A stretch of 64,000 nt of DNA, from positions 242-64,241 of the forward strand of contig JAQWMF010000014.1 in NCBI GenBank assembly GCA_029246925.1. Reading direction: 5' to 3'. Both the position numbers and the translations under genes were made by a program. Shown here piece after piece: positions 1,245 through 38,183 of this stretch (position 1 is its first letter; each line of letters starts with the position of its first letter). The DNA comes from Porticoccaceae bacterium (GTDB lineage Bacteria > Pseudomonadota > Gammaproteobacteria > Pseudomonadales > Porticoccaceae). Under the pieces are notes generated by a model. That model was not told where the DNA came from. It saw only the letters and a list, made by a program, of their open reading frames with translations, and made no database searches.

Positions 1245-2696
1245 ATGTATAAATATCTTGTAATTCTAATATGTTCAATTGTTGTTGTTGGCTGTGACCA
1301 GCCTGTTGCAGATAATACAGCTGACAAGTCCACAAGGGATAGTCTAACGGTTTATACCACGGCAAAAGATACTGACCAGCGTTTAACTAAAACAGGTACC
1401 TTTCAATTTAAGCCGCGGGTTCAGGCGACAGAGGGTGAGATTTCAATTTTTGTTAATTCGAGTAAGCAGTTTCAAAAATTTCTGGGTATTGGTGGTTCGT
1501 TCACTGACGCCAGTGCTGAGGTATTTGCAAAATTAGATACTGCTAAACAAGAGGAATTCCTTAAAGCCTATTACGATATCGAAGAGGGTATTGGATATTC
1601 GCTTGCTCGGACCACTATCCATAGTTCGGATTTTGGCAGTGGCAGTCACACCTATATTGACGAGGGTGATAAGTCCCTAGACACTTTTTCTATTGATAAG
1701 GATAAGCAATTTCGTATTCCTCTCATCAAAAGAGCAACCGAGGCAGCGGGTGGTGAATTATTGCTTTACGCGAGTCCTTGGAGTGCGCCAGCATTTATGA
1801 AAAGCAATAACAATATGTTGCGTGGCGGAAAGCTCTTACCTGAGTACTTTGATTCTTGGGCTAACTACTACACAAAATTTATTAAGGCCTATGAAAGTGA
1901 AGGTATGCCTATCTGGGGTATTTCAATACAAAATGAGCCAATGGCTACTCAGCGCTGGGAGTCAATGATCTACACAGCGCAAGAGGAAAGAGATTTCTTG
2001 AAAAACCATCTTGGGCCAGCAATGGAAAAAGCAGGCTATGGCGACAAAAATATTGTTGTTTGGGATCATAACCGAGACCTTCTTACCGATCGCGCAAATG
2101 TAATTTTGGATGATCCAGAAGCCTACAAATATGTTTGGGGTATTGGATATCATTGGTACGAGACCTGGACTGGCGGTGACAGCATGCACGACAATCTTGC
2201 TGCGGTTAAGGAATCATATCCAGAGGTTCAGCTGCTGTTTACCGAGGGGACTGTTGAAGGGTTTAGAGAGGATCGCTATCAATATTGGCCCAATGCTGAA
2301 CGTTATGCTCGTTCTATGATTAAGGATTTTAATATTGGCACTGTGGGCTGGACTGATTGGAACTTGCTGCTAGATCACACTGGCGGGCCAAATCATGTGA
2401 GTAATTTCTGCTTTGCGCCAATTCATGCAGATACACGCACAGGTGAGCTTATTTATACGCCAAGTTATTACTACATAGGGCACTTCTCTAAATTTATCCG
2501 TCCTGACGCAAGAAGAATTAGCACTAGCAGTAGTCGCAGCGTTCTTCTGGCCACCTCTTTTATGAATACAGATAATCAAATTGCTACGGTGGTTATGAAT
2601 GAAACTGACCAGTCTATTGACTATCATTTCTTTGCTGATATGGAACAGGTGACTTTGACCATTCCGGCTCGCAGTATGCAGACGTTGGTATACTAA
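1245..2696 (+). CDS. GH30 (GH30_1-like) beta-glucosidase / beta-1,6-glucanase, lipoprotein
   Basis: Lipobox VVVGC; GIGGSFTD, YASPWSAP, QNEP (acid/base), FTEG (nucleophile), WTDWNLLLD motifs; C-terminal beta domain. Confidence 0.9.
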   Translation: MYKYLVILICSIVVVGCDQPVADNTADKSTRDSLTVYTTAKDTDQRLTKTGTFQFKPRVQATEGEISIFVNSSKQFQKFLGIGGSFTDASAEVFAKLDTAKQEEFLKAYYDIEEGIGYSLARTTIHSSDFGSGSHTYIDEGDKSLDTFSIDKDKQFRIPLIKRATEAAGGELLLYASPWSAPAFMKSNNNMLRGGKLLPEYFDSWANYYTKFIKAYESEGMPIWGISIQNEPMATQRWESMIYTAQEERDFLKNHLGPAMEKAGYGDKNIVVWDHNRDLLTDRANVILDDPEAYKYVWGIGYHWYETWTGGDSMHDNLAAVKESYPEVQLLFTEGTVEGFREDRYQYWPNAERYARSMIKDFNIGTVGWTDWNLLLDHTGGPNHVSNFCFAPIHADTRTGELIYTPSYYYIGHFSKFIRPDARRISTSSSRSVLLATSFMNTDNQIATVVMNETDQSIDYHFFADMEQVTLTIPARSMQTLVY

Positions 2697-2733: not shown

Positions 2734-3891
2734 TTAATGAATTTGACGATATTTGGTAGGGGTCATACCCTCTAATTTCTTAAAGAAAGTATAAAAGACT
2801 GATTTACTGTTAAAGCCTACGGCAAGATATATATCAGTTATCGTAGTATCTCTCTGATCCGAATCCTTCAGCATCCTCTTGGCTTCATCTATTCTGTAAC
2901 TGTTTATAAAGGTATAAAAGTTAGCGCCAAAGTGTCTATTGATAATCATTGATAGATCTCTTGACATGATTTCAAGGGTTTCTGCCAAGCTGTCTAGGGT
3001 GATATCAGGATCCAAATACAGTTTTTCTTGCTTAATCCGCTCATTAATTGACTCCGCCTCTTGGGGGTTTATCGCAAACTCATCTGCGGGTTTCTTGGGT
3101 AGATCTGCTTCATTAACCTGCTCGAACATGCCGAAAAATCGTATAGCAGTGAATACTAGTAAATTGACCAAAAAGAACGTGGTGTAATAGCGAGTGAGCC
3201 CTATATAAAAGTATATATAGTGATAATGGGTAAAGATTTTTGAGGCAGAAAGGATAAGCTCAAACAGCATAACAATGGTAAAGCCAGCAACCAATGCTCT
3301 CAACCAGGATAGATGCGCTTTTTCCATGTTTGAGTGCTTCTCTTGAAGCTTCAATGCGTATCGGCTAATAAGAATAAAGCAGGCAATAACGTAGGAAAAA
3401 CGAATTAACTTGCTGAAAAACTCTATACCGACATAGTTAGCGCTGTAAACAAATGACTCGCTATTTAGCATCTCTAGGCGAATACTAGGTGGGTTGCCAT
3501 AGAAGCTAAAGCCAATAAAGAGACTGTAGATGGCGAATGGCAATAGATGTAAAAGATCAGCTCGCTTTAATGCAAAATCTCGAAAAACCAATGATTTTAT
3601 ACATAAGAATAATAAGGGTCCGTCTAAGTAGTAAGCAATACCAGGCGCAAAATATAAAGAGGTCAATTGTTGACGAGCATGTACTTTAAACTCCACGCCC
3701 CACATCATTAATTCATTAATCGGAATCAGTGAGTGAGCAAATAGAAAGGCAGCGAGAAAAAAAGTACTTTTAATTTGCTTACTGTTTGTAAACCACAGTA
3801 ATAGGGCAAAAAATAGGCACTGCAACGATATCATCATCAGGATAACATCGTGAAAATTAAACAGTACAGATTCGAATTTAAGATTAGTCAT
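2734..3891 (-). CDS. Membrane-anchored AraC-family transcriptional regulator
   Basis: N-terminal ~250 aa has several hydrophobic helices; C-terminal AraC HTH (LYLDPDITLDSLA..., INSYRIDEAK, VGFNSKSVFYTFFKKLEGMTPTKYR). Confidence 0.92.
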   Translation of the reverse strand: MTNLKFESVLFNFHDVILMMISLQCLFFALLLWFTNSKQIKSTFFLAAFLFAHSLIPINELMMWGVEFKVHARQQLTSLYFAPGIAYYLDGPLLFLCIKSLVFRDFALKRADLLHLLPFAIYSLFIGFSFYGNPPSIRLEMLNSESFVYSANYVGIEFFSKLIRFSYVIACFILISRYALKLQEKHSNMEKAHLSWLRALVAGFTIVMLFELILSASKIFTHYHYIYFYIGLTRYYTTFFLVNLLVFTAIRFFGMFEQVNEADLPKKPADEFAINPQEAESINERIKQEKLYLDPDITLDSLAETLEIMSRDLSMIINRHFGANFYTFINSYRIDEAKRMLKDSDQRDTTITDIYLAVGFNSKSVFYTFFKKLEGMTPTKYRQIH

Positions 3892-4212: not shown

Positions 4213-6690
4213 ATGTTTGCTAAAAAAGTGCTTGTCGCGCTGAGTCTACCATTTATATTTTCACTTACAGCCTGTGGTGGCGATGCAGATCAAAATGTTG
4301 TGCGTGATATTTTTGCAATTGGCGATATTGTAGAAACTAAAGAAGATGGCGGTGAGGTGATTGGTGATGTGAGCACCAATGATCAAGGCGACAATCTTAG
4401 TTTTTCTTTGGTTGAAAATCAGACCATGGAAAATGGAACTCTTGTGTTCAATACAGATGGCACATTTACCTATACACCTGATTTAGATTTTTTTGGCTCT
4501 GACGCAATACATTATGTAGCGACTAATGATGTTACTGGTGCCACCTCTACGGCGACTCTTACTATAAATGTAGTGAATGATTTTGAGCGTATTGATGAAT
4601 ATGGCTGGGAATTAGTTTGGAGTGACGAATTTAATGCTGCTGATGTATTCGACTCAAGTCTCTGGGTTGGAGATGATGTTACTGTTAGTAGTGGCAGTCT
4701 TAAAATTAATGCAATTGAGGGTCAATCTTCGTCAGTTAAAGGTATACAGCCAATCAGCAAAGGTCGTATTGAAGCCAATGTAAGAACGGCTGCTGGTGTT
4801 GATGTAATGTCGGCCTTTAAATTAGTTCCAGTGAGCGATATTTACGATGGTGATAACGCGCTAAGTTTAATGCAGGCTGAAGATGGCACTATGACGGCTG
4901 GTGCGCACTACGGTTTGGATAGAATAAGTGGCGTTCTTATGAATGCTGATATTCTTGCGACTACTTCTGATGAGTTTCATACCTATGCTATTGAATGGGG
5001 TGAGAAAAAAATACGTTGGTATATAGATGGAACCCATGTCTATACAGTAAATACACTGAACCTATGGGGATATAACCAAAGTGCCGACGATATAGTTGCT
5101 GATACAGACGGACCATTTAATCAGCCTATGCACGTTATTTTTGATGTGACAGCAGCCACTGAAGATTTGCCGACTCAAATTCTTGTTGATTATATAAAGG
5201 TGTGGTCTTGTAACCCTTCAGTGGAAGCTAGCGTTGAAGAATGTGCGTCCAAGGAAAAGTCAAAAATCTCTCGGGGAGCAACAGACAGGATTGAGGCTGT
5301 AGGCGCTGAGCAAACCACTATCTTTTCTGATGGTTATAAAGATCCTGCTACTGAGGCTCTAATATCTGCGTTACACCCTTTGAGCTGGCACTATCTAAAA
5401 AAAGATGTATTCGATTTAACTCTAACCAGTGACAATGAGTCTGAAGTTAAAACCCTTACTCTTGAAGGCGACGAGCATGATCTTGTATTAGATTTCACCA
5501 ATGCTTCTGGGGCAGCTTCAATGGGCATTGAAACAGAGGTAATAGAGAGCGTTGAGTTAAATGGCTACGATATTACTTTGAATTTTGATCTTTTGATCGA
5601 TAGCGCTGCAACAGATGCTGAAAATATCACCATCAAAATGCAATCTGGTGATGCTGTTGATGATGATACTGCTGATTCTGGTGCTGGAGAAGTCTCTTGG
5701 GTTCTGGAAGAGCTTACCTTGGACTCTTGGGTAACTTACAGTATTCCAGTGTCAGACTTTATCGACAATCCTGTAGACCCGTTAGGTCTAGATCCAGAGA
5801 ACCTTACATCATTGATGATCCTTGAAGTGGATGGTGGCGCCCATTTGCAATTAGATAATATTTCGCTGAATTGCATAAACTCAGAAGGTTGTCTTCAGGG
5901 TCCACTGGCCTTGCAAACGGCTGCTGCACCAAAAGCTGATCCAATTCGCATTGAAGCCGAAAACCACATAACCCAAAGTGGAACTGGTCTTGAAGATACA
6001 GCGGATGAGGGTGGCGGTCAGAATGTTGGTTTTGTCAGTGATGGTGACTTTGTAAGTTACACCATCAATGCACCAGCTATTGGGCCCTACACTCTGGACT
6101 ATCGTGTGGCGAGTAAGGGCGGGAGTGATGGGTTTGTTATGTCGCTTGATGGTGAGGTTATTCATTCCCAATCAATTCCTGATACTGGCGATTGGCAGAA
6201 TTGGGTCACAGTCACTTCTTCAGCATTCGAGTTGACTGCAGGGGTATATACCATGCAGATCGACTTTGTTGATGAAAACCAGAATCTAAACTGGCTTGAA
6301 ATACAGCCGCCACTTGGTGAAGTTTTTATCGAAGCTGAAGACTATGACGTCGTGAGTGGAATTGATATGGAAGAAACCACTGATACTGGCGGTGGTGAGA
6401 ATATTGGCTGGATTGATCAGGGTGATTTTGTTGAATACACCGTCAATATTCCATCGACCGGTGAATATCTCATTCAATACCGTGTTGCAGGACTCTGGGA
6501 TACCCTAGGGCTTGAGAACACTATTGGTGGCGTTTTAGTGGATACGCAAGCGATGGATTCAACGGGCGACTGGCAGAACTGGGTAACGCAAAGCGCCGTG
6601 GTGAATTTAACCGCGGGTGAGCAAACCATGCGCTTAGACTTTATCGATGGGCCTATGAATATCAACTGGATTAAGCTGATCAGACAATAG
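4213..6690 (+). CDS. Lipoprotein: Ig/cadherin-like domain + degenerate GH16 domain + CBM-like beta-sandwich + 2x CBM6
   Basis: Lipobox LTAC; DGTFTYTP repeat-type domain; GH16 framework (WELVWSDEF, GRIE, FHTYAIEW, IRWYIDG, PFNQ, VDYIKV) but no ExDxxE motif; two CBM6 modules (RIEAE...GWID.GD..EY...TG.WQ.W.T...N.NW). Confidence 0.8.
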   Translation: MFAKKVLVALSLPFIFSLTACGGDADQNVVRDIFAIGDIVETKEDGGEVIGDVSTNDQGDNLSFSLVENQTMENGTLVFNTDGTFTYTPDLDFFGSDAIHYVATNDVTGATSTATLTINVVNDFERIDEYGWELVWSDEFNAADVFDSSLWVGDDVTVSSGSLKINAIEGQSSSVKGIQPISKGRIEANVRTAAGVDVMSAFKLVPVSDIYDGDNALSLMQAEDGTMTAGAHYGLDRISGVLMNADILATTSDEFHTYAIEWGEKKIRWYIDGTHVYTVNTLNLWGYNQSADDIVADTDGPFNQPMHVIFDVTAATEDLPTQILVDYIKVWSCNPSVEASVEECASKEKSKISRGATDRIEAVGAEQTTIFSDGYKDPATEALISALHPLSWHYLKKDVFDLTLTSDNESEVKTLTLEGDEHDLVLDFTNASGAASMGIETEVIESVELNGYDITLNFDLLIDSAATDAENITIKMQSGDAVDDDTADSGAGEVSWVLEELTLDSWVTYSIPVSDFIDNPVDPLGLDPENLTSLMILEVDGGAHLQLDNISLNCINSEGCLQGPLALQTAAAPKADPIRIEAENHITQSGTGLEDTADEGGGQNVGFVSDGDFVSYTINAPAIGPYTLDYRVASKGGSDGFVMSLDGEVIHSQSIPDTGDWQNWVTVTSSAFELTAGVYTMQIDFVDENQNLNWLEIQPPLGEVFIEAEDYDVVSGIDMEETTDTGGGENIGWIDQGDFVEYTVNIPSTGEYLIQYRVAGLWDTLGLENTIGGVLVDTQAMDSTGDWQNWVTQSAVVNLTAGEQTMRLDFIDGPMNINWIKLIRQ

Positions 6691-6743: not shown

Positions 6744-9700
6744 ATGAAGTACGAGACTAAATTCAAAAGACAATTATTAGCAAGTAGTATTGCTATGGTT
6801 GTGGCTGCTGGTGCTAATGCTCAGGAAGCAGTGCTTGAGACGGCGGATGATAATATCGAAGAGGTTGTAGTCACAGGTATTCGAGCCAGTTTGCAGCGTT
6901 CGATGGATATTAAGCGCGATGCCAAGGGTATTGTCGATGGAATTTCAGCAGAAGATATAGGTAAATTTCCGGATACTAACCTAGCTGAGTCTCTGCAGCG
7001 AATCACGGGGGTTGCTATTGAGCGCGATCGCGGTGAGGGCTCAAAGATTACGGTTCGTGGTTTTGGTCCAGACTTTAATATTGTCAGTTTTAATGGCCGT
7101 CAGATGCCTACCAACGGTGGTAGATCTTTTGACTTTGGTAATATTGCATCTGAGGGTATATCTGCGGTTGAGGTGTATAAATCGGGTCGAGCCAATGTAG
7201 CTTCTGGTGGTATTGGCGCGGTAGTCAATGTGATAACCAGCAAGCCGCTTGAAAAACCCGGTCTTCGTGCAGTTTTAAGTACCAAAGGGGTCTATGATCC
7301 AGGCACTAGACGCGGGAATTCAGTGAATCCTGAAATTGTTGGGCTGTTTAGTCAAACCTTTGCCGAGGACACCATTGGTGTTTCTCTATCTGCCAGTAAA
7401 CAGGTTCGAGATGGTGGCTCTCAGTCAGTCACAACTCAAAGCTTTATGGGCCGCAATTTTGTTACTCTGGATGATATGGATAATAACGTTGATGATGCAG
7501 AATGGGGCTCAATACCTGTTGGCGATCCAACAGCGATTAACTTCCCTACAGAGGTTTCTGAGGGTATTTATGCCATTCCAACCAATATTCAATATAACCT
7601 CGATGATTTTCGCCGTGAACGTATTAATGGACAGCTGACTTTACAGTGGCGACCGGTAGAAAATATTACTGGAACTATCGACTATACCTATGCTGAAAAT
7701 CAGATGAATACTCAGCACCAAGATTTATCGGCGTGGTTTGATCCGGGTTGTAGCACGCGCGAGAGTGAATGGGTTCAAGAGGGAAATATATGGTCGCCTA
7801 CGGTTTATCGTCAAGTGGGTTGTGCGCAGGATAATCTTCAGGGTGTCGGACTTTTTGCAACAGTTGATGAAAATAAATCGGCTGGCTTTAATTTGGAATG
7901 GCTAGTCAATGACAACCTGACTTTAAATATGGACTATCACGATTCAACCGGTGAATCTCGCCCCAATAGTAAACATGGATCAGGCGGTTCAATGGCAGTT
8001 GCTGCACTTAATCGAATTACTACATCGGGCTACTTTAGTGAAGACGGTATGCCTGTTTTAGAGGTTCAGCTGGGTGAGCGAAATTCTTATAACCAAATTT
8101 CTAGAATAGACCCAGTAAATGCTGAAGATATGCAGGTGTCTGGTAGTTCATTTGGAAGCTTTAACAATGTTATGGATGTTAAGCAGCTTCAGTTTGACGG
8201 TGAGTATGTATTTGATGAGGGGCATAGCATAGATTTCGGTATTGGTCGCATTGAGGTTACCAACAGAGGGCAGTCTAAGAGTATTGCTCGAAATACATGG
8301 AGTGGTGTGGGTGATCCGGGTGATATTGCTGATTTCCTGACGGTTGATTCTATTGCCGATGTCTACGATACACTTGAAGGCAGCGGTGATCCGCGACAGG
8401 TAACAGAGTTTTTCACTTGGGATTTTCAGGCGCTTATTGATCGCAGTGAGGAGCTTCTGCAATCAGGTAGCCATGGTGATGTTGATGGTGATGGCGGACC
8501 CTGTTTAACCGGTTTCTGCCCCTCTTATAACTTTGATTTGGACGAAGTCACAACTGAAACGTCTGATTCAATCTATTTGCAAACCCATTGGGCTGGCGAT
8601 CTATTAGATCGTCCAGTTAATCTATTCTATGGCATACGCTACGAAAAAACAGAAGTTCATTCTGAGGCGCTAGTGCCACTTTATGACCGTGTTGAGTGGA
8701 GTATTTTGGATAACCGCTTTAATCTTTATCAGCAGCAAGATGAAGAGGGCAATACCATTGTAGGCTTCTCAGAAATTGATGGTTCCTACAGCATGTTTTT
8801 GCCAAGTCTCGATTTTGATATGGAAATTATGGATGATGTCATCTTGCGTGCTTCCTACAGCTTGACTGTAACGCGCCCAGTTTACAACGATCTCAAAGGT
8901 GCGTTGATTATCGATTATCTAGGCACTGATGGTGGTGGTGGTCGAAGAGGTAACCCGCAGCTTCTACCTATGGAAGCAACCAACTTAGATCTATCATTAG
9001 AATGGTATTACGATGAAGGCAGTTACGTTTCTGCAGGCCTATGGTCTAAGGATGTAGATAACTTTATTATAAGTGCTACCTTTGAAGATCAGCCGTTATT
9101 CAAAAACCTTTACACGCCGATTGATGGCGATTTATACAATCAGGCAGTGGATGAGTTAACGGGTGGTGATCCGCGATTTGACTATGATGCGGGGGACCTA
9201 AATGAATACTATGCGGAAAATTATATAGGTCAACCGGGAATAGAGATATCTGGTCTGGGTGACGATATTGAGGTGACTCAAACTGGTCTTGAAGGGGATC
9301 CAGTGGCTATTTTTGATGTTACTATTCCAATTAATCAGCGTGAAACCAACGTTAAAGGTCTAGAGTTAATGGCCCAGCATACCTTTGGTGAATCAGGCTT
9401 TGGTTTTCAAGCAAACTACACGGTTGTCGATGGTGACCTTAAGTACGATATCAATCTTAATGAGGAACAGTGGGTTATTCCTGGTATGAGCGATACGGCT
9501 AACCTAGTTGCCTTTTATGATAAGAATGGATTCCAAATTCGGTTGGCCTATAACTGGCGTGATGAGTTCTTGGCATCCCCCGGAAGAGATCCACGCTTTG
9601 TTGAAGAATATTCCCAGTTTGACCTTAATGCGAGCTATGAATTTAACGATAATTTGTCAGTATTTATTGAGGGAATTAACTTAACCGAAGAGCATCAGCG

Positions 9701-9785
9701 TATTCATGGTCGATCGTCTTATCAGGTTAGAGAATACTCTGTAGGTCATGCTCGCTATAACCTAGGTGCCCGATATAGCTTCTAA
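6744..9785 (+). CDS. TonB-dependent receptor (SusC-like glycan importer by context)
   Basis: Signal peptide, TonB box IEEVVVTG, plug ISAEDIGKFPDTNLAESLQRITGV, C-terminal YNLGARYSF. Confidence 0.95.
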   Translation: MKYETKFKRQLLASSIAMVVAAGANAQEAVLETADDNIEEVVVTGIRASLQRSMDIKRDAKGIVDGISAEDIGKFPDTNLAESLQRITGVAIERDRGEGSKITVRGFGPDFNIVSFNGRQMPTNGGRSFDFGNIASEGISAVEVYKSGRANVASGGIGAVVNVITSKPLEKPGLRAVLSTKGVYDPGTRRGNSVNPEIVGLFSQTFAEDTIGVSLSASKQVRDGGSQSVTTQSFMGRNFVTLDDMDNNVDDAEWGSIPVGDPTAINFPTEVSEGIYAIPTNIQYNLDDFRRERINGQLTLQWRPVENITGTIDYTYAENQMNTQHQDLSAWFDPGCSTRESEWVQEGNIWSPTVYRQVGCAQDNLQGVGLFATVDENKSAGFNLEWLVNDNLTLNMDYHDSTGESRPNSKHGSGGSMAVAALNRITTSGYFSEDGMPVLEVQLGERNSYNQISRIDPVNAEDMQVSGSSFGSFNNVMDVKQLQFDGEYVFDEGHSIDFGIGRIEVTNRGQSKSIARNTWSGVGDPGDIADFLTVDSIADVYDTLEGSGDPRQVTEFFTWDFQALIDRSEELLQSGSHGDVDGDGGPCLTGFCPSYNFDLDEVTTETSDSIYLQTHWAGDLLDRPVNLFYGIRYEKTEVHSEALVPLYDRVEWSILDNRFNLYQQQDEEGNTIVGFSEIDGSYSMFLPSLDFDMEIMDDVILRASYSLTVTRPVYNDLKGALIIDYLGTDGGGGRRGNPQLLPMEATNLDLSLEWYYDEGSYVSAGLWSKDVDNFIISATFEDQPLFKNLYTPIDGDLYNQAVDELTGGDPRFDYDAGDLNEYYAENYIGQPGIEISGLGDDIEVTQTGLEGDPVAIFDVTIPINQRETNVKGLELMAQHTFGESGFGFQANYTVVDGDLKYDINLNEEQWVIPGMSDTANLVAFYDKNGFQIRLAYNWRDEFLASPGRDPRFVEEYSQFDLNASYEFNDNLSVFIEGINLTEEHQRIHGRSSYQVREYSVGHARYNLGARYSF

Positions 9786-11886: not shown

Positions 11887-14800
11887 ATGCAAATCAACAG
11901 TCCAAATTACGCTCTTAGCTCGGTAAGTCCCTTGAAGGCTTGCGCGCTATGCTTTTTACTATTATTTATTGTCAGCTGTGGTGTTGAAACTGGCAATGAA
12001 TTTCTGGATGCTCCAGAAAATATAGTAGATACCAGTAATCAGGACTCAAATGCCTATAAGCCACTAGGAGAAATTCCTGATGTGTCACTGGCAGATATCA
12101 CTGTTCGTGGGCGACCTTATATAGATAAGTCTCTAGGTTATAACGTCATCCGTTCTGATATGGGTACCTTGCTTCGAGGTGTCAGCCTATCGACAGATGG
12201 TGGCGATCCCTATAACGCGGCAAATGCAATGAATCCGCCTATGCCAACCCTACAGCAGTTGCAGGATATGGTGAATAATTATGGTTTCAATACCCTGCAT
12301 GTATATCTGGAGGGCGATGCAGCACAAAACCCCAATCCAGCAGGTATTAATGAAGCTCTAGCGGATCACTTAGTTGAAATCACCCGTGAAGCCAAAATGT
12401 ACCTCATTATCACCATCGGTAATAACGGCGAAAATGGGGCGATTCACAGTATGGAAAAAGTATTGGCGTTTTGGGATCTCTATGGCGCCAAATATAAAGA
12501 TGAAACCCATGTTATCTATGAAGCACACAATGAGCCGGTAGTTGGTTCAAATGCTTATTGGACGACAGAAGACTGGGAAAAGCAGGCTCAGATGTATCAA
12601 AAAATTCGGGAAGTGGCGCCTGATACCATGGTTTTATTGGGATCCTTTATGTCATTTTTTGGTGGTTCTCAAGCCATTAAAGGCGCTGATGGTTTGGCTG
12701 AGCAGTTCCCTGATATTTGGAAAAATGCCGGATTCGCATTCCACGCCTATTGGAATCTCCCTCAGGTTGAAAGCACTATTGAAGCCTTTGAAGCAAGTGA
12801 TGACTATCCAGCATTGCTATGTACAGAATTTTGGCCTGGTGATACCAAAAATGGCTATAACGAAGTATTCGAAAGTCATCAAATTGGCTGGACTCAATTT
12901 GAATGGCTAGGTGCCAATGATCTTGAATTAGATCGCATTAAAAACTATATGGATACCTATGGTACGGCATGGCGTCCAGACAACCCTACGACTACCTGGC
13001 CAGCAAGCGGTACACCCAATATACCTATAGACCAAAAAATTGGTTTGTATAGTCGTGCCGATAAAGCGTTTCTTGGACTTGATGATAATGACAGAGTTGT
13101 AGCTGGTGATCGTAGCTATGATGGCGTGGGTTCGGATGAATTTATTGTGGTAGATGCCGGTGATGACGGGCATATCGCATTGCTAGCCGATAATGGTAGA
13201 TATTTATCTGTCAGCGACTATGGGCAACCCCTAGTGGCCACCGCTAGAAAAATCGGGGTTAATCAAAAATTCAAATGGTTGGAGTTGCCCACTGGTGATA
13301 TAGCGCTTCGCCCATGGTCAGGATCAGGCCACTTAATTGGAACCATTCCCTCTGCTGATGGCGATGGGTTCGGTCTAACGGGCTCAATGGGTGCCGGTAT
13401 TAAACGCGGAGGTGCAAACACATACCGCATGGTGACCAGTTACACTGATTCTGTTGATCCATTACCAGAGCTACCAGAGACTCCCCCTGGTCCATTTTTC
13501 GGAAGTCCAATGCCAGTGCCAACTAGCGGCAATGGCGACCACCCTCTAGACAGTTTGGCACCTAACGGTCGCCTTTGGGCTTCTGATTATGATAATGGCG
13601 GTGAAGGAATATCCTATCATGACACCGGTGCAGTCAATCTCGGTGAGGCCTATCGTGCGTCTGAAGCGGTTGATGTTCAGTCCAGCTCAGAAGGCCATAC
13701 CTCTGTGGGATTCTTTGAACCAGACGAATGGCTTGAATACAGTATAGATGTGGCTCAGGCTGGAAATTATACCCTGACTCTGCGAACGGCATCATGGGGT
13801 GGTGGCTTTATTAGTCTAGAGTCTGACTGTGAAAAACTAACGGGAAATCTCTCAACACCAGATACAACGAGTTGGGATATTTGGCAAGATATGACGGTTG
13901 ATATCACTTTGAAAGCCGGTGTGCAAAAGCTCAGAGTAGTCAGTGGCGGCAATATGAACTTTATGAATATGGATATTCAGTTGGGCGGTGAAGGCGGTTC
14001 TGACTATGGTGCTGGTTGTGAGTGGGTTGCACCAGAGCCAGATGATTTAAAAGTCGAAGCAGAGGATTGGACTACCGTAGTAGCTGCACCAGCAGGTACG
14101 GTCAGTATAGATACGGCTTCTGATAGCGATTTAAGTCAGCATGTGGGTAATTTTGATGCCGGTGACTTTATTGAATATGCCGTAGAGTTACCAAGTACAG
14201 CCTGTTATCGCGCGGAATATCGTGTCGCTAGTGATTCAGGCAGTGATGGTTTTGAGCTTATATTTGACGGTGAAACTGCAGATAGCTTCAAAATAGCGCC
14301 AACCGGTGGTTGGTCAAGCTGGGTTACATTCACTCGACACTATGAGCTTAACGAAGGCAGTCAAACCCTAAGACTCGAAGCTTTGGGCGATTCCTTCAAT
14401 ATTAACTGGCTAACATTTAATGAAACTGAAGCGGTTGATTGTGAGCAAAGCGCCGCAATTATCATTGAAGCTGAAACCTATTCAAATTCGGTTCAGCTTC
14501 CCGATGGAGAAGTGAACACACAGCCTAGTGAAGATGAAGGTGGCGGTCTAAATGTGGGTTGGATTGATGCTGGTGACTGGATGGAGTATGAACTACAGGT
14601 TAGTGAAGCGAGTAACTACACAGTGAGTTACCGCATGGCCAGCCAGTCAGGCAGTAGCTCAGGTATTAATCTTCTTACAGATGGCAACCTAGTTGATTCG
14701 ATTCAGGTGCCAAACACCGGTGGTTGGCAGATTTGGCAAACTGTCGAAGGTGGAAATATTTCTCTAGAAGCGGGTGATTATGTGCTTCGATTTGAAGCGC

Positions 14801-16818
14801 CAGGAGGAGGTCTTAACCTTAATTGGATTAAGTTGATGCCAACGAATGAAACAGCTACTGGCAATTTAGGTACAGGAGTCGATGACAGCCTAAATGTTGG
14901 TGAAGTGATTAACTTTAATGATCTGTATGTGGATTATGACTTAATCGATCTAGGTGATAGTTTATCTAACCTAGAAGCTGACCCATCGGATAATACCAAT
15001 ACCGTTGTCTCTATCCTTAAAGGTGCTGTTGCACAATCTGGGGTTAAGATTGCCAGCGCTCAGGTTACATACCCATTGAGTGAGACTCTAACTAGATTAT
15101 CGATGCGCGCGTATAGCTCAGCTATTGGCACCTCAGTGCGTATGAAACTAGAAGATTCAACCAACAGTGCTAATTCTGTTGAGGCTGAAGCCTTAACCAC
15201 GGTAGCTAATGAATGGGAAATATTAATCTTTGACTTTAGTAACCCAGTCGATGGCACAGCTGAATTAAACACAGGCTATAATTTTGATACAGTTTCAGTA
15301 TTCTTTAATTACTTAAGTGCGGGTAATGGAGAAACTTACTATTTTGACGACATAACCATGCTAGACGAAGTGGTTGAGCCTATAACTTTGACGCAAGAAA
15401 TACTGGTTGGTGAATGGAAATTAGCCCCAGAAGCTGGTTCCGCTGGTGTGGGTTGGGAATCTGGCAATCTAGGCTGGTGGCAGGTTGATGCAGCTACCGT
15501 TATCGATAGAGATTGCTTGTTTGATGATCTATTTGTATTTTCTGAAGATGGGACGTTCACTAACCAAATGGGTGGTTCAACTTGGATTGAACCATGGCAA
15601 GGTGTAGATCCTGAGGCCTGTGGCACACCAGTTGCGCCTCACGATGGTAGTGGCAGTGCATCCTATGTATTAGATCCTGAAGCGGGAACCATTACATTGA
15701 CCGGTGTTGGCGCTCATCTCGGTCTGGCTAAAGTAATGAGTGGTGGCGATGAACTGGCCAGTCCAGATGATGCCCCTGAATCCATTGTTTATAAGGTAAT
15801 GGCCAGTACAGATAACAGTATAACTGTAGAAGTTGCCTATTCAGCAGGGTTCTGGACCTTTAAGTTGGTTGCATCTGACTATGTTGCTGAGGTGCAGGAA
15901 GACCCTGTTGTTGATAGCGATAACCCTCGCATTGAAGCTGAAGATTGGTCGAATGTAATTTCAGCACCAGAGGGTGAAGTAGCCACTGAAAACTCTCAGG
16001 ACACTGGTGGTGGTGAAAATGTAGGTTGGATTGACCTTGGTGACTGGATGGAATACAGCCTTAATATCAGTCAGTCAGGTAATTATCAGATGAACTACCG
16101 AGTTGCGAGTCAGAGCGGCAGTTCGCCAGGCTTTAAGATCCTATTAGATGGTACTTGGATTGATCAAATTGCAGTCACAAACACTGGCGCCTGGCAGAAT
16201 TGGGAGACAATTTCTGGCAGAGTAATCTATCTTGATCAAGGACTACACACATTGCGTCTGGAAGCTCGTTCTGGTGGTGTTAATTTAAATTGGATCGAAC
16301 TTGTAGCGACTAATGCGCAAGCTGATCCATTGCCAGAGGCAGCCCCCCCAATAACGGCCAGTGATTTAGTGGGTAATTGGAAGTTAGCCCCTGAAGCGGG
16401 TGCATTGAGCAATCCGTACTGGGCTAATGATGTAGCATCAGTAACTAGTCGAAGCTGCCTATTTGATGATCTATTTATATTTTCTAGTAATGGCGCGTTT
16501 ATCAACCAAATGGACGGTGAGACTTGGGTAGAACCATGGCAAGGGGTAGCTTCAGAGCGTTGTGGAACACCGGTTGCACCGCATAATGGCGCTGGACGTA
16601 CTGGTTATATTTTTGATGATTCAGCTATGACCATAACATTAAATGGTGCGGGTGCTCATTTAGGGATTCCCAAGGCAATTAATGGTTCGGAAATGGATTC
16701 TCCAAGCCAAACGCCAGATTCAATTGTTTATGAGGTTATTGATAGCACCGCGACAACCATGACCTTGAATATTAATGTCTCCTGGGGTGATTGGACATTT
16801 AAATTAATCAAAGATTAA
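11887..16818 (+). CDS. Multimodular GH5 glycoside hydrolase lipoprotein (GH5 + fascin-like + 4x CBM6 + CBM-like + 2x repeated domain)
   Basis: Lipobox IVSC; GH5 motifs LLRG, YEAHNEP, FHAY, CTEF, QFEW; beta-trefoil-like segment; four CBM6-type modules; internal repeat at about 15403-15870 and 16366-16815. Confidence 0.8.
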   Translation: MQINSPNYALSSVSPLKACALCFLLLFIVSCGVETGNEFLDAPENIVDTSNQDSNAYKPLGEIPDVSLADITVRGRPYIDKSLGYNVIRSDMGTLLRGVSLSTDGGDPYNAANAMNPPMPTLQQLQDMVNNYGFNTLHVYLEGDAAQNPNPAGINEALADHLVEITREAKMYLIITIGNNGENGAIHSMEKVLAFWDLYGAKYKDETHVIYEAHNEPVVGSNAYWTTEDWEKQAQMYQKIREVAPDTMVLLGSFMSFFGGSQAIKGADGLAEQFPDIWKNAGFAFHAYWNLPQVESTIEAFEASDDYPALLCTEFWPGDTKNGYNEVFESHQIGWTQFEWLGANDLELDRIKNYMDTYGTAWRPDNPTTTWPASGTPNIPIDQKIGLYSRADKAFLGLDDNDRVVAGDRSYDGVGSDEFIVVDAGDDGHIALLADNGRYLSVSDYGQPLVATARKIGVNQKFKWLELPTGDIALRPWSGSGHLIGTIPSADGDGFGLTGSMGAGIKRGGANTYRMVTSYTDSVDPLPELPETPPGPFFGSPMPVPTSGNGDHPLDSLAPNGRLWASDYDNGGEGISYHDTGAVNLGEAYRASEAVDVQSSSEGHTSVGFFEPDEWLEYSIDVAQAGNYTLTLRTASWGGGFISLESDCEKLTGNLSTPDTTSWDIWQDMTVDITLKAGVQKLRVVSGGNMNFMNMDIQLGGEGGSDYGAGCEWVAPEPDDLKVEAEDWTTVVAAPAGTVSIDTASDSDLSQHVGNFDAGDFIEYAVELPSTACYRAEYRVASDSGSDGFELIFDGETADSFKIAPTGGWSSWVTFTRHYELNEGSQTLRLEALGDSFNINWLTFNETEAVDCEQSAAIIIEAETYSNSVQLPDGEVNTQPSEDEGGGLNVGWIDAGDWMEYELQVSEASNYTVSYRMASQSGSSSGINLLTDGNLVDSIQVPNTGGWQIWQTVEGGNISLEAGDYVLRFEAPGGGLNLNWIKLMPTNETATGNLGTGVDDSLNVGEVINFNDLYVDYDLIDLGDSLSNLEADPSDNTNTVVSILKGAVAQSGVKIASAQVTYPLSETLTRLSMRAYSSAIGTSVRMKLEDSTNSANSVEAEALTTVANEWEILIFDFSNPVDGTAELNTGYNFDTVSVFFNYLSAGNGETYYFDDITMLDEVVEPITLTQEILVGEWKLAPEAGSAGVGWESGNLGWWQVDAATVIDRDCLFDDLFVFSEDGTFTNQMGGSTWIEPWQGVDPEACGTPVAPHDGSGSASYVLDPEAGTITLTGVGAHLGLAKVMSGGDELASPDDAPESIVYKVMASTDNSITVEVAYSAGFWTFKLVASDYVAEVQEDPVVDSDNPRIEAEDWSNVISAPEGEVATENSQDTGGGENVGWIDLGDWMEYSLNISQSGNYQMNYRVASQSGSSPGFKILLDGTWIDQIAVTNTGAWQNWETISGRVIYLDQGLHTLRLEARSGGVNLNWIELVATNAQADPLPEAAPPITASDLVGNWKLAPEAGALSNPYWANDVASVTSRSCLFDDLFIFSSNGAFINQMDGETWVEPWQGVASERCGTPVAPHNGAGRTGYIFDDSAMTITLNGAGAHLGIPKAINGSEMDSPSQTPDSIVYEVIDSTATTMTLNINVSWGDWTFKLIKD

Positions 16819-17700: not shown

Positions 17701-18612
17701 TTAACTCTGCATTACCAGCTTGGGTGTTCTATCTGCTTTATAGATGCCCCAGTGTTTTTCTGGTTCTAGTGGATCGGGCGAGCCTTTCCAGTTTTCATCA
17801 AAGGCTTCAAAGAAATAAACCAGTACCTGTTGTTCCTGAGCCCAGTTCATAAGTTGGTGAAAATACTGCTGTTGAAAATTTTCATTAACATTATGGCTTT
17901 CAATGCCACGTCCGTTTGAATTCGTCGCCCAGCCAGCTTCAGTAATAATAATCTGTTTGTCAGGGTGGGCGTCTTGGACTGCTTGAAAATTAGCAATAGT
18001 GTAGGCCAAACCCTCATCAATGCTTTTGAACTCCCATACTGGATAGGTATGGATGGAAATAACGTCAAGCTGCTCTGCAAGTGGTCTGAGATGTTCTAGC
18101 CAAGGAACGTAATTTTCACAAAAAGTTACTGGCTGTAATACCTGTGATTTGGTGCGCTGAGCATAATCAATTAGATTTTCCGTGGGTACTAAGTGATCGG
18201 TCCAGCTAACTGCGGCCTCATTGCCTATAGAGACTGAGCTAATAATGGTTGGATACTTATTAGCCAGTTCAATTAATTCTTCAATTTGTTTTTCATTATG
18301 ATGCTTATTGCTGCGTAATTCTTCTTCAGAGTAAAGGCCGCCCCAAGGACAATTTTCATTGCAAACCTCAGCAGTAATATAGGCGCCAAGCATTACATCA
18401 AATGGCAGTTGCTCATTCTCAATAACATGCAAAATGGTTTTTGAATGTTGATCGCTACCGTAGAGTCGTAATGATTTCCAATCATCTTTAAGGATCAATA
18501 GGTCTTGCTTGACTTGATCATAGGATGGAAATTCACCGCCATCTGGACTCTGTCCATCGCGATATCCCGAATAGCAAATAGCTTTTGTAAAAGGTAAGAT
18601 ATTTTTTGTCAT
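17701..18612 (-). CDS. GH17 beta-1,3-glucanase/glucosidase, no signal peptide
   Basis: ICYSGYR, IGNEA, SIHTYP, ITEAGW, YFFEAFDENWK, EKHWG. Confidence 0.88.
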   Translation of the reverse strand: MTKNILPFTKAICYSGYRDGQSPDGGEFPSYDQVKQDLLILKDDWKSLRLYGSDQHSKTILHVIENEQLPFDVMLGAYITAEVCNENCPWGGLYSEEELRSNKHHNEKQIEELIELANKYPTIISSVSIGNEAAVSWTDHLVPTENLIDYAQRTKSQVLQPVTFCENYVPWLEHLRPLAEQLDVISIHTYPVWEFKSIDEGLAYTIANFQAVQDAHPDKQIIITEAGWATNSNGRGIESHNVNENFQQQYFHQLMNWAQEQQVLVYFFEAFDENWKGSPDPLEPEKHWGIYKADRTPKLVMQS

Positions 18613-18617
18613 ATTTC

Positions 18618-19508
18618 TTATTTTGAGTATTTTAAATGTTCATTTTTGTCCCACAAACCCCAATAGGCACCAACATCACCTTCGGCACCAATTTTCCATG
18701 ATTCATCAAACGATGAAAAATAGAACATGTCTATATCTTCAGACTCTGTCCACTGCTGACTGTTCAGAAAATACCGAATGGCATTAGTTTCTGATGGCTC
18801 AGCCCCATGAAAACTTTGGCCGCGATTGGGCCAGCCAGTTTCGGTAATAATAACTTTCTTGCCACCAGCGGCCTTAATGGTTCGATTGTACATATCTTTC
18901 ATATACAGCAAAGAATATTCAATAGGACAGCCTTCCCAGAAGGGATAGCAATTAGCAAGAATGACGTCGCAAATTTCCGTGACTGCTGGGCGATCTTCGA
19001 ATTCATAGTAGGCATCAACATAGCCTACAGGTAGATTGGGAACTGCTGCCTTAACTCTGGCAATATATTCAAGTAACTGTTCTTCAGATAGGTCATCGCG
19101 ATAAAGTACTTCATTGCCGACTGCGCAAATGTCAACATAACCTTCTTTGGCTAGTTTTATCAGTCCCTCAATCTCAAGCTCATTCTTTTTAAGGTTGTCG
19201 CCAAGCCATGCTCCGACAAGCGTTTTAAGTCCCATCTCTTTTGCAACCACAGGAACAAGCTCATTACCTAAGCAGCAAGAGAACGAGCGCACCCATCCAG
19301 TATGTGGCTTTAGGGTAGCCATGCGCTCTCGAATCTGTTCAATTTCCAGTTGATCGCCAGGCTCTTGGCCTTCGCGATAGGCACTAAAACCAATACCATG
19401 AATCCCAGAATCTAAGCAGCTTTTAAAATATTCCTGCATTTGGACTTGGCTAAGCTGAGAAATATCTATACCAGTGAGGGATAGGATTTTTCCTTCTCTT
19501 TTAGACAT
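18618..19508 (-). CDS. GH17 beta-1,3-glucanase/glucosidase, no signal peptide
   Basis: GFSAY, WVRSFS, VGNEV, ANCYPFWEG, ITETGWP, FYFSSFDESWK. Confidence 0.88.
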   Translation of the reverse strand: MSKREGKILSLTGIDISQLSQVQMQEYFKSCLDSGIHGIGFSAYREGQEPGDQLEIEQIRERMATLKPHTGWVRSFSCCLGNELVPVVAKEMGLKTLVGAWLGDNLKKNELEIEGLIKLAKEGYVDICAVGNEVLYRDDLSEEQLLEYIARVKAAVPNLPVGYVDAYYEFEDRPAVTEICDVILANCYPFWEGCPIEYSLLYMKDMYNRTIKAAGGKKVIITETGWPNRGQSFHGAEPSETNAIRYFLNSQQWTESEDIDMFYFSSFDESWKIGAEGDVGAYWGLWDKNEHLKYSK

Positions 19509-19946: not shown

Positions 19947-22900
19947 ATGACTCATAAGCAAATTCACGTAGGTCAGCAACTTCAACAAACCAATAATGTT
20001 GAGGTTGGCGGCAATTACATCAATATAGAAGGTGAAACCTTCTATCAAATTGAGAACTACGACCAGATGAAGGATTTCTTCATCAGCGTAGTTAGCGATT
20101 CCGATCACTGGATGTTCATTTCCACTCGCGGTGGACTTACTGCTGGAAGAATTAATTCAGAAAATGCCCTTTTCCCATACTACACAGATGACAAAATTAG
20201 TGATGGCTCGCCATATACGGGTAGTAGAACCATAGCACTTGCGACTATTGCAGATAAAACCTCTCTCTGGGAGCCGTTCTCTGAGCAATATAATGGCATC
20301 TACAACATCACCCGCAACCTTTATAAGAATGTGTTTGGTGATAAGCTAATTTTTGAAGAGGTTAATCAGGATTTATCCCTGACTTTCCGTTACGCATGGC
20401 GTACATCCGATAAATTTGGTTTTGTTAAAACTTCAACTCTGATCAATAACGGTAATTCATCTGCTGAGGTAGAGATTATCGATGGTATTGAAAATCTTTT
20501 GCCTTATGGCGTTGAAACTGATGTTCAAGGTGGTTTGAGTTGTCTGGTTGATGCTTATAAGAAGAATGAGCTCGATGCAGAAAGTGGACTTGGTTTGTAC
20601 AGCATGAGTTCTATTTTGGTAGACCGTGCTGAGCCTAGTGAAGCGCTTTCTACCACTACGGTTTGGTCAGTTGGTTTGCCAAACGCTAAAAAATTGGTTT
20701 CTTCCCTTCAACTTGATAGCTTCCGTAAAGGTGTAAGTGTCGAGCAAGAGCTAGACGTTCGCGGTCGTCGCGGTGCTTATTTTGTCAATGATTGCCTAAC
20801 TTTGGGGTCATCTGAAGAAAAAAGCTGGAATATTGTTGCTGAAATCAATCAGGGTCCAGCTAAAGTAAGAGACTTAATGGCTTACTTGAAGGCAGATAAA
20901 AATATCAATCAGGATATAGAAGCTGATATAGCCTTGGGTTCAGAAAATCTTGCCCGTATCGTAGGCATCTCAGATGGCTTACAGGTCACTGAAGATCGAC
21001 TAAGCGCTAACCACCATTTTGCCAATGTGTTATTCAATGTAATGCGTGGGGGTTTGTTTGTAGATAACTATTCAGTGCCCAAGGCAGATTTAATTGGATT
21101 TGTTAAAGGCTTTAACCGCCAAGTATATGATCAGTTTAAAGACTTTTTCGAAGGCTTGGATGACACTTTTCACTACAGTGATCTAGTCAAAGCTGCTTCC
21201 AAGCAAAATGATGCTGGCGTTCAGAGACTGTGTTTTGAATACTTGCCGCTTTCATTTAGCCGTCGCCATGGGGATCCATCTCGACCGTGGAATAAATTTA
21301 ATATCAAAGTGAAGCAAGAAGATGGATCGCAGCTGCTTAACTTTGAGGGTAACTGGCGCGATATTTTCCAAAACTGGGAAGCCTTGAGTTACTCAATTCC
21401 TAATTACATCGAAAGCATGATCTGTAAGTTTGTGAATGCTTCTACAGCCGATGGCTATAATCCTTACCGAATTACTAAAGCCGGTATTGATTGGGAAAAG
21501 CCAGATCCGCATGATCCTTGGGCCAATATTGGCTACTGGGGTGATCATCAGATTATTTACCTATTGAAGTTCTTAGAATTCTCCAATGACCATCATCCAG
21601 GTACATTGCGTGACTTCTTAACCCGTGATCTATTTTGTTACGCCAACGTGCCCTACAAAATTAAAGGCTATCAAGATCTATTAAAAGATCCTCACAACAC
21701 TATCGATTTTGATGAGGCTACTGATGAACTTATTGAGCAGCGCGTCTCTCAGGTAGGTGCTGATGGGCGTCTTATCTGGGATAAAAATGGTTCGGTTTAC
21801 TATGTGAATCTGACTGAGAAGCTTTTAGCAACTATGCTGTCTAAGTTGTCGAACTTTATTCCAGAGGGCGGTATTTGGATGAATACCCAGCGTCCAGAGT
21901 GGAACGATGCGAATAATGCATTGGTAGGCTACGGTGTATCCATGGTAACGCTGTATTACACAAGACGTTATCAGCAATATCTTCTTGATCTGTTCTCTAA
22001 TACAGAGCTTGAAGAGGTGGCAATTTCAGAAGAAATTGATGGGCTTTTACGATCAATTAACCGTACTTTTGAAGATAATAAGCAACTATTGGCTGGAAAA
22101 ATTAACGACACGGATAGAAAGCGTGTGGTTGATGCGCTGGGTGAAGCAGGTTGCCAATTCCGCAGCGGCGTTTATGACAATGACTTCAGTGGCAATCGCG
22201 TGATGCTCAAAACAGCTGACCTGACTGCATTCTTGAAGCTATCGCTTGAGTATATTGATCACAGTATTGAGGCTAATCGCCGTGAAGATGGCTTGTATCA
22301 TGCCTATAACCTAATGACTGCTACAGAAGACTCTGTAGAAGTAAGCCATCTCTACGAAATGCTAGAAGGTCAGGTTGCGGTATTGAGTTCGGGCTATTTG
22401 AGTCCAGAGCAGGCTCTTGAAGTATTAACCTCATTAAGAAATTCTTCAGTTTATACGGAGCGTCAGCACTCATATTTGTTATACCCAGATCGTGAACTTA
22501 CTCGTTTTGTCGATAAAAATATTATCCCTGAAGCGCAGCTAAAACGTTCGGAGTTATTAACGTTGCTAGTGAGCTCTGGTGATACCGCTCTTGTCGAAAA
22601 AAATTCTCAGGGGGGCTATCACTTTAACGGCGCCTTTAATAATGTCGACAGCGCTAGGGTTGTTTTAGGCGCATTGAAGGAAAATGGCTACCAAGATTTA
22701 GTTGATAAAGAGCAGTCATTAATTGAAGAGATTTTTGAGTCGGTATTTAATCATCGTCAATTTACCGGTCGATCAGGCGGTATGTATGCCTATGAAGGAC
22801 TAGGTTCTATTTATTGGCATATGGTTTCTAAGTTATTGCTTGCATCGCTCGAAAATTTCCGCAAAGCACTAGAGCAGGGTTCTGATACGGTTACTGTGGG

Positions 22901-34165: not shown

Positions 34166-34196
34166 CAGAGTTATGGCTGTAGCCTAGTTTAAAGCC

Positions 34197-35907: not shown

Positions 35908-35943
35908 TTTTGAAGAAAAACGTGAAAGTCTTATGGAGAAAAA

Positions 35944-38171: not shown

Positions 38172-38183
38172 TTTAATACCTGC

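Follow-up and report, generated by a model that had tools for sequence, protein, structure and literature searches.

A lipoprotein gene upstream of a TonB-dependent receptor

We analysed a 64,000-nt stretch of a Porticoccaceae bacterium genome (contig JAQWMF010000014.1 of assembly GCA_029246925.1, forward strand, positions 242 to 64,241; hereafter the window) and focused on a lipoprotein gene at 4213..6690 on the plus strand, which lies directly upstream of a gene for a TonB-dependent receptor (TBDR), TBDR1. Positions are in window numbering and residues are in the numbering of the 825-aa open reading frame (ORF). An earlier sequence-only reading had taken the protein for a catalytically dead member of glycoside hydrolase family 16 (GH16) that might replace SusD as a glycan-capture or lid partner of the receptor. 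Our analysis favours, with a probability of about 0.6, a non-catalytic, glycan-binding lipoprotein of a gammaproteobacterial laminarin locus that is coupled to TBDR1 and resembles the surface glycan-binding proteins (SGBPs), not an enzyme.

Translation gave an intact ORF of the length read before, the MSAFK and DNALSLMQ motifs lie at exactly the nucleotides first given for them (Table 1), and the spacer between the stop codon and the TBDR1 start (6744) is 53 bp, as noted. Translation and Pfam likewise bore out the lipobox, the Ig-like spacer and the two modules of carbohydrate-binding module family 6 (CBM6). The full-length AlphaFold2 (AF2) model is all-beta (mean predicted local distance difference test score, pLDDT, 84.9; predicted template modelling score, pTM, 0.72). 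The CBM-like middle domain (residues 341-575) of the earlier reading stands at the level of the fold and no further: it was modelled (pLDDT 77.7) as a beta-sandwich similar to CBM11, CBM30 and the ExoP C-terminal domain (template modelling score, TM, ~0.6), with a weak Exop_C match in Pfam and BLASTP similarity to the protein of metagenome locus L154. Hence, the middle domain has its relatives in the Exop_C-like modules that active GH16 lipoproteins carry.

The lipidation site Cys21 is invariant in a 50-sequence family alignment. The tether that follows it is the best conserved stretch of the protein, above any domain (mean top-residue frequency 0.89 vs 0.62-0.74 for the domains); in the same alignment, G23, D24 and A25 are conserved in at least 90% of sequences and R31 is invariant. 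pLDDT is below 50 up to residue 28. This tether could serve as a sorting signal or as a docking peptide.

The surrounding genes for GH30, GH17 and GH149 proteins and for a GH5 protein with four CBM6 modules fit a locus for the use of beta-1,3-glucan (laminarin).

Table 1. Features of the lipoprotein gene, then of the genes around it
Position	Strand	Feature	Basis
4213..4275	+	Signal peptide II, lipobox LTAC, Cys21 lipidation site	Translation; N-terminus MFAKKVLVALSLPFIFSLTAC
4276..4317	+	Post-Cys tether GGDADQNVVRDIFA (GGDADQNVVR...)	Conservation profile
4318..4575	+	Big_9/cadherin-like Ig domain, spacer	Pfam PF17963, E=1.8e-12, residues 36-119
4576..5232	+	GH16-like beta-jelly-roll module, predicted non-catalytic	Residues 122-340; Pfam, profile, Foldseek
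4807..4821	+	MSAFK, at the WPA(F/I)W substrate-stacking strand site	Residues 199-203; alignments, family columns
4852..4875	+	DNALSLMQ, at the (S)GEIDIME site	Residues 214-221; alignments, family columns
5233..5937	+	Cys-bracketed linker and CBM-like beta-sandwich	Residues 341-575; AF2, Foldseek, weak Exop_C, BLASTP
5938..6312	+	CBM6 module a	Pfam CBM_6/CBM_35_2, residues ~580-696
6313..6690	+	CBM6 module b and stop codon	Pfam CBM_6/CBM_35_2, residues ~707-822; PDB matches, Foldseek
1245..2696	+	GH30 lipoprotein, lipobox VVGC, Asp at +2	Pfam 252 bits; N-terminus; synteny
2734..3891	-	AraC-family regulator, membrane-like N-terminal half, divergent	Pfam HTH_18; conserved synteny
6744..9785	+	TBDR1, TonB-dependent receptor	Plug and barrel domains; TIGR01782, 626 bits
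9928..11633	+	SapC and Cupin_8 genes, without signal peptides	Pfam
11887..16818	+	1643-aa lipoprotein, GH5 and four CBM6, lipobox IVSC	Pfam; N-terminus
17701..19508	-	Two GH17-like genes, without signal peptides	Pfam; N-termini
19947..23411	+	GH149 beta-1,3-glucan phosphorylase, cytoplasmic	NCBIfam NF058639, 1746 bits vs cutoff 1150
23496..24917	-	MFS/GPH sugar transporter, in-frame TAG	Pfam MFS_2 from profile position 80 only
26418..27710	+	GH17-like lipoprotein, lipobox LFGC	Weak Pfam match; N-terminus

The GH16-like module lacks the catalytic residues and the canonical cleft

Sequence and fold both place the module at residues 122-340 in GH16. The Pfam match to PF00722 (Glyco_hydro_16; residues 150-289) is weak and above threshold (42 bits vs a cutoff of 22), the family profile matched the laminarinase structure 3iln at 1e-14, and Foldseek returned GH16_3 laminarinases with TM 0.6-0.66. 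The catalytic E-x-D-x(x)-E motif is absent. As the first reading had it, NALSLMQ stands where GEIDIME is expected, WPAFW has become MSAFK and all three carboxylates are gone; Ala216, Ser218 and Gln221 occupy the positions of the nucleophile Glu, the Asp and the acid/base Glu.

The register of this strand was taken from phmmer alignment to ZgLamC (4crq), from the family profile against 3iln, 5wut and 3azx, and from BLASTP against the closer active homologue of locus L154, in which YGGWPKSGEIDIVES pairs with YDG---DNALSLMQA. The profile against 3iln also allowed a two-residue shift of the register, which the hydrophobic pattern and L154 disfavour and which has no triad either. We found no conserved E-x-D-x(1,2)-E elsewhere in the GH16-like module among 91 homologues.

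The cleft loops are shortened, as suspected: compared with 3iln and 3azx, the ~20 residues of the GxGWGNxELQxYT loop are missing, as are the YTSAR segment and, ahead of the catalytic strand, a loop of 5-7 residues. Both Trp of WPAFW are replaced in the family profile relative to laminarinase structures, and none of the WPA(F/I)W strand, WGNxE and SAR cleft elements of laminarinases is kept. These alignments indicate that the canonical minus-subsite architecture is dismantled along with the catalytic residues, and the protein is predicted to be non-catalytic. The additional loss of the WPAFW Trp pair, the SAR segment and the WGNxE loop weakens the proposal of a dead cleft turned to glycan capture.

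The catalytic triad is absent throughout the family

We assembled 91 full-length homologue clusters (90% identity clustering) of the same architecture, 46-99% identical, from Tara, JGI, ENA and NCBI marine assemblies. Named sources were Porticoccaceae/SAR92, other Cellvibrionales, Alteromonadaceae and Colwelliaceae/Colwellia, and at least one record, Colwelliaceae bacterium BS250 (L018), is not labelled as a metagenome-assembled genome (MAG). The ORF is intact in the 91 clusters, which span two orders. When only residues 122-575 served as the query of a further word-indexed search, 11 proteins came back and nothing was added. Three apparent partial orthologues were rejected: L031 (Cellvibrio) and L040 (Marinimicrobium) carry active GH16 and/or GH5-CBM6-CBM6 genes, and L073 has no listed ORF at the match. 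One locus of the family (L012, JBNMPD010000030.1; also P0088) is labelled as a Flavobacteriales MAG, yet it carries a gammaproteobacterial gene set (the lipoprotein, a TIGR01782-like TBDR at 73% identity, SapC and Cupin_8) and is probably a mis-binned contig.

The sequence-only reading had named close orthologues with ExDxxE as the mark of recent decay; the triad occurs in 0/91 homologues. Column 216 holds A39/S28/N7/Q5 with Glu in only 2, column 218 holds S40/N20/I14 (also V) with Asp in 1, and column 221 holds L45/Q19 (also K) with Glu in 9. Asn215, beside catalytic column 216, is invariant, and the GH16-like module has 23 invariant columns in all, with Y233, N244, H275, W285 and Y287 also among the invariant residues.

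A codon-level comparison with three relatives (84, 78 and 72% identical), a check that the first reading had proposed, gave dN/dS of 0.07-0.14 for the GH16-like module, which is purifying selection, and 0.06-0.18 for the CBM6 modules. The whole gene had 0.09-0.13 vs 0.037 for TBDR1. With the triad absent family-wide and the gene under purifying selection (dN/dS ~0.1), recent decay is ruled out and the protein is a genuine pseudo-enzyme, as first claimed. The catalytic loss is, on this evidence, ancient, and the dead module is kept by selection.

Per-gene dN against L003 shows the lipoprotein gene to be evolving faster than any other of the locus: the lipoprotein is 58% identical (dN 0.26, dS 1.9), vs 78-93% for the flanking proteins (dN 0.035-0.13, dS 0.8-1.3). 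In L003 the Big_9 repeat of the lipoprotein is duplicated and its GH16-like module carries an insertion of 23 residues, and the signal peptide and tether are 86% identical. This high divergence relative to the flanks would fit an exposed surface protein. At L003:9303-12104 and L004:10001-12805 the lipoprotein is 56-58% identical and the flanks are 77-93% identical, a pattern that suggests a divergent allele set in a conserved frame; blastn of the window against L003 gave high-scoring segment pairs too coarse to place recombination breakpoints, and per-gene dN and dS were used instead.

The CBM6 modules are of a beta-glucan-binding type

The two CBM6 stretches scored 151 bits with Pfam CBM_6. 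CBM6b matched the PDB entries 8zvk, 1uxz (3.5e-25), 5fui (the ZgLamC CBM6, 5e-20) and 1w9s, and Foldseek gave TM 0.92 to 5fui. We take 1uxz (CmCBM6-2), 5fui (ZgLamC-CBM6) and 1w9s (BhCBM6) to be beta-glucan or laminarin binders. As reference positions we used E20, Y33, W92 and N121 of CmCBM6-2, presumably its cleft-A ligand residues. The equivalents in CBM6b (E720, an aromatic residue at 733, here W733, W787 and N816) are kept in 91/91 homologues, and those in CBM6a (E594, F607, W661 and N691) are intact here. Since the usual sugar-contacting residues of GH16 are gone, we place binding on the CBM6 modules, on which sugar recognition probably rests.

The GH16-like module lost these contacts but keeps its invariant columns and low dN/dS; therefore it should have some other maintained role. 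The candidates to which these data point are a remodelled groove, a rigid scaffold and a protein contact.

The lipoprotein gene is coupled to one receptor orthogroup

TBDR1 matches TIGR01782 (Xanthomonas/Caulobacter type) and no SusC/RagA model (TIGR04056). Its orthogroup is discrete: in a metagenome search with a TBDR1 profile, members were at least 60% identical and paralogues at most 43%. Among genome loci with downstream sequence (SAR92, Porticoccaceae, Cellvibrionales, Colwelliaceae), the lipoprotein gene lies 36-169 bp upstream of a TBDR1 orthologue on the same strand in 14/14. The lipoprotein is present at all five metagenome loci at which DNA upstream of a TBDR1-orthogroup member is available, and L081 and L083, from an exact protein look-up, agree, for a total of 21/21 loci with a distance of always 36-171 bp and the same strand. 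In the metagenomes, the lipoprotein preceded a paralogous TBDR at 0/74 loci. Hence, the partnership claimed before holds as gene coupling that is tight and specific to one TBDR orthogroup.

No terminator-like site was found in the 53-bp spacer by a promoter/terminator scan, which found fewer sites than in shuffled controls. At most of the 74 paralogous loci (L090-L163), too, the TIGR01782-type TBDR is followed by SapC and Cupin_8, so these two genes are not specific to the lipoprotein-TBDR1 pair.

The first reading had also spoken of a TBDR that lacks SusD, and no SusD-like gene lies within the 64-kb window. This is not special: TBDR1 is a classical TIGR01782 receptor, and polysaccharide utilization loci (PULs) without SusD are the norm in Gammaproteobacteria (PMC13000452, PMC8371827).

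The nearest relatives are active laminarinases

In a HMMER scan of 1.84 billion representatives with a profile of the GH16-like module, the family formed a compact clade at 216-308 bits, followed by a gap to at most 149 bits. The next relatives are overwhelmingly active GH16 proteins with GEIDIME, many of them lipoproteins. Some of these, for example P0138 and P0155, share the N-terminal layout of lipobox, Big_9, GH16, Cys-bracketed linker and Exop_C-like sandwich; P0135 and P0139 are further active outgroups. In metagenome locus L154, a gene for an active 1064-aa GH16 lipoprotein (EIDIVE) immediately precedes that of a paralogous TBDR, and SapC and Cupin_8 come after the receptor. Active GH16-CBM6-CBM6 enzymes occur in Cellvibrionales, too (L040).

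Since the nearest outgroups are active GH16 lipoproteins, one of them in the same slot, the protein looks like a surface laminarinase turned non-catalytic, and these comparisons show its descent from lipoprotein GH16 laminarinases. In the simplest history, a surface laminarinase encoded beside the receptor ceased to be catalytic, and its CBM6 modules were either retained or acquired.

Catalytically dead GH16 modules also occur elsewhere, for example in P0159 (GQINILE), in P0167 (GYLEIVN) and as the second modules of P0136, P0152 and P0170. Degenerate strands (GQINILE, GYLEIVN, GQVVIME, GEIDIVN and others) were seen among P0159, P0167, P0136, P0152, P0154, P0166, P0170, P0206 and P0212, often beside an active copy. 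Such modules thus seem to arise repeatedly and independently in multimodular proteins.

A probable helper for laminarin uptake and its alternatives

Conserved CBM6 modules, lost catalysis and constant adjacency to TBDR1 make a sugar-capturing helper for laminarin uptake the most likely role. Like an SGBP, the protein is a lipoprotein encoded beside a TonB-dependent transporter (TBDT) in a glycan locus, and it is non-catalytic by sequence. Hence, the earlier interpretation stands as to the pseudo-enzyme, the intact beta-glucan-type CBM6 and the specific receptor coupling, and is weakened as to the repurposed cleft. A SusD substitute or lid is not supported by these data, and the protein is structurally unlike SusD.

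The lipoprotein is probably anchored to the outer membrane, and the Saccharophagus degradans genome paper proposes that the lipobox anchors carbohydrases there (PMC2386152). As proposed for those enzymes, the lipid-anchored chain would be exposed on the cell surface, where the CBM6 modules, and perhaps also the middle beta-sandwich, would hold laminarin chains or chain ends near TBDR1. The neighbouring GH5-4xCBM6 lipoprotein would cut the glycan, TBDR1 would import the resulting oligosaccharides, GH30 and GH17 could process them in the periplasm, and the GH17-like enzymes and the GH149 phosphorylase could finish the processing in the cytoplasm. The dead GH16 module would most probably serve not in canonical cleft binding but as a rigid scaffold or as a contact surface for TBDR1 or a partner enzyme.

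Several points weigh against this helper role. The cleft-A residues of CBM6a are altered in ~20/91 homologues, so some of the modules may not bind sugar. If only the CBM6 modules bind, nothing explains why the dead GH16 module is so strongly constrained. In Gammaproteobacteria, lipoproteins of the outer membrane mostly face the periplasm, and we found no gene for a surface-lipoprotein translocon or secretion in the 64-kb window. As to expression, the lipoprotein sequence was found only in marine DNA metagenomes, and RNA runs of the same study were without its words.

A possible though doubtful alternative is that the lipoprotein is an obligate physical partner of TBDR1, which docks through its GH16 face on the extracellular side of the barrel and hands over ligand or caps it, as an analogue of SusD or in the manner of TbpB and TbpA. 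The one-to-one pairing with the TBDR1 orthogroup (21/21 vs 0/74 for paralogues) speaks for it, as does the gene order: the lipoprotein gene comes first, and the short spacer before the TBDR gene has no terminator-like site. It would also account for the invariant columns of a module without sugar contacts and for the tether as the most conserved segment. The lipoprotein is much more variable than its receptor (dN/dS 0.09-0.13 vs 0.037); TbpB is likewise the more variable partner of TbpA, and tbpB precedes tbpA. However, TBDR1 has no SusC-specific features and belongs to the classical TIGR01782 receptors, which are not known to need a lid, and the lipoprotein has no similarity to SusD or TbpB. 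In L154 the same slot holds an active GH16 enzyme, so adjacency alone does not imply a complex, and the slot appears to be one for a surface enzyme or glycan-binding protein, not for a lid.

The same tentative standing applies to a gammaproteobacterial two-component glycan receptor, in which the former laminarinase, without catalysis and sugar cleft, would dock onto a classical TBDR via its remodelled GH16 face and tether while the CBM6 arms draw laminarin from seawater and pass it to the barrel. If true, this would be a proteobacterial counterpart of SusC/D with TbpA/B-like logic, and it could account for the way in which SAR92, without SusD, takes up laminarin at high affinity or in a 'selfish-like' manner.

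It is improbable that the protein is an outer-membrane lipoprotein facing the periplasm, where it would bind imported beta-1,3-oligosaccharides under TBDR1 and retain them or present them to GH30 and GH17. Lol-sorted gammaproteobacterial lipoproteins are periplasmic by default, Gly at +2 predicts outer-membrane sorting only, and the window holds no surface-export gene. Cleft A of CBM6 binds chain ends, which would suit oligosaccharides too. However, the nearest relatives are endo-acting GH16 lipoproteins, and the GH5-4xCBM6 neighbour makes sense only outside, on polymer. Surface proteins such as Cf-SGBP (bioRxiv 10.1101/2023.09.07.556657) typically combine an elongated Ig spacer with several CBMs, and the divergence relative to flanking genes fits exposure.

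We consider it very unlikely that the protein is still an enzyme that depends on non-canonical residues, such as a transglycosylase or a hydrolase whose carboxylates have moved. Asp212 and Asp214, just before the strand, are fairly conserved (Asp in 68/91, and Asp or Glu in 67/91, respectively), and 'migrated' catalytic residues are known in some pseudoenzymes (PMC10211241). However, the strand has no conserved acidic residue, both stacking Trp and two cleft loops are gone, and no family member has E/D-x-E/D-x(1,2)-E/D at a conserved position in the module. A functionless, decaying gene or annotation artefact, to which the lost motif, the weak Pfam GH16 score and a nearby MFS gene with a premature stop might point, has a negligible probability and is refuted by conservation: intact ORFs in two orders, dN/dS ~0.1 in every domain, invariant lipobox Cys and CBM6b binding residues, and conserved synteny.

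Relation to known systems

The sugar-capturing helper that we favour has its closest counterparts in Bacteroidota PULs, in which non-catalytic surface binding proteins are well known (bioRxiv 10.1101/2023.09.07.556657, PMC7157763, PMC7974029). SGBPs (SusE/F-type proteins, the Christiangramia forsetii laminarin SGBP, and the beta-glucan SGBPs of gut Bacteroides) are also non-catalytic, multimodular, all-beta lipoproteins encoded beside the TonB transporter of a beta-glucan locus, with tandem binding modules on an Ig-like stalk. Unlike these, the lipoprotein here is gammaproteobacterial, its TBDR is classical and non-SusC, SusD is lacking and its gene precedes the TBDR gene. It also carries a dead GH16 and CBM6 modules in place of CBMxx/CBMyy (bioRxiv 10.1101/2023.09.07.556657) or SusE/F folds, and its binding and exposure are predictions. 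SusD-like proteins, too, are lipoproteins encoded next to a glycan TBDT, and share the presumed glycan binding; however, SusD is a helical, tetratricopeptide-repeat-like lid of ~500-600 aa that works with SusC-type barrels, whereas the protein here is all-beta, has no SusD Pfam match and accompanies a TIGR01782 TBDR.

Active GH16_3 laminarinases (ZgLamC 4crq/5fui, S. degradans Lam16A/B, the L154 lipoprotein and P0138) share the fold, the position beside TBDRs and the layouts, either lipobox/Big_9/GH16/Cys-linker/Exop_C-like or GH16-CBM6-CBM6. They keep GEIDIME, WPAFW and the cleft loops, whereas the family here lacks all of them.

TbpB and TbpA of Neisseriaceae and Pasteurellaceae resemble the present pair in that the lipoprotein gene lies immediately upstream and is far more variable than the receptor gene, and TbpB captures ligand, as we propose for the lipoprotein here. 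They differ in their protein ligand, transferrin, in the lack of homology and in Slam-dependent export; no Slam-like gene was seen here. The betaGRP/GNBP proteins of invertebrates also have a GH16 fold without catalytic carboxylates and are beta-glucan-related and non-hydrolytic, but they are soluble immune receptors of eukaryotes, of independent origin and without a link to transport.

The nearest precedent in print is an entry in the 2008 S. degradans genome paper, which lists a lipobox/GH16/CBM6/CBM6 protein with "catalytic residues missing" (PMC2386152). This protein, from a related order (Cellvibrionales), combines a lipobox, a GH16 module that lacks its catalytic residues and two CBM6 in the same way. 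The paper lists it in a table without comment on function or on a TBDR, and it may be an independent or distant case. S. degradans Lam16G was absent among our full-length genome matches, and no dead protein of ~877 aa was among the top 150 representatives.

In bloom metaproteomes, SAR92 TBDTs from loci with GH16 and CBM6 genes rank among the most abundant of that clade, according to a study that treats the SAR92 GH16 genes as laminarin-degrading (PMC8371827). Counting the genes of this family as GH16 laminarinases in surveys of carbohydrate-active enzymes, as there, would overstate hydrolytic potential and miss a binding function. Our searches found no published account of this family as widespread, long dead as an enzyme, maintained by selection and tied to a single classical TBDR orthogroup, nor of its derivation from active lipoprotein laminarinases in the same slot or of the dismantled canonical cleft. 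Laminarin is among the largest carbohydrate fluxes of the ocean, and SAR92/Porticoccaceae are major responders to blooms. How Proteobacteria without SusD capture polysaccharides for their TBDTs is poorly understood, and the family is a concrete, widespread and testable candidate.

Other genes of the window

The GH5 module of the 1643-aa lipoprotein conserves its catalytic Glu in the NEP and TE motifs relative to 2y8k, and this protein probably acts as the surface glucanase of the locus. Among solved structures, the module is closest to the arabinoxylanase CtXyl5A (GH5_34; 2e-24), though the locus is otherwise specific for beta-1,3-glucan. The signal-less GH17-like pair adjoins the GH149 gene, which suggests a cytoplasmic, phosphorolytic end of the laminarin pathway (17701-23411). 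The lipobox of the GH30 protein (VVGC|D) would, by the rule for E. coli, lead to retention in the inner membrane, unlike those of the other three lipoproteins of the locus.

The gene for the transporter of the major facilitator superfamily (MFS/GPH) has its stop at 24695-24693, codon 75, within the conserved DPLMG-x-ISD (...DPLMG*ISD...), and the frame continues unchanged beyond it. A nonsense mutation, a sequencing error and a strain-specific pseudogene are possible explanations.

A GH3 gene, probably for a beta-glucosidase, lies at 61176-63548, ~35 kb from the locus. Between the two are nrdR, the rib operon, nusB, thiL, pgpA, a resistance-nodulation-division (RND) pump and an extracytoplasmic function (ECF) sigma/anti-sigma pair. 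At the second TBDR of the window (30935-39182), Trp-halogenase-like genes accompany SapC and Cupin_8.

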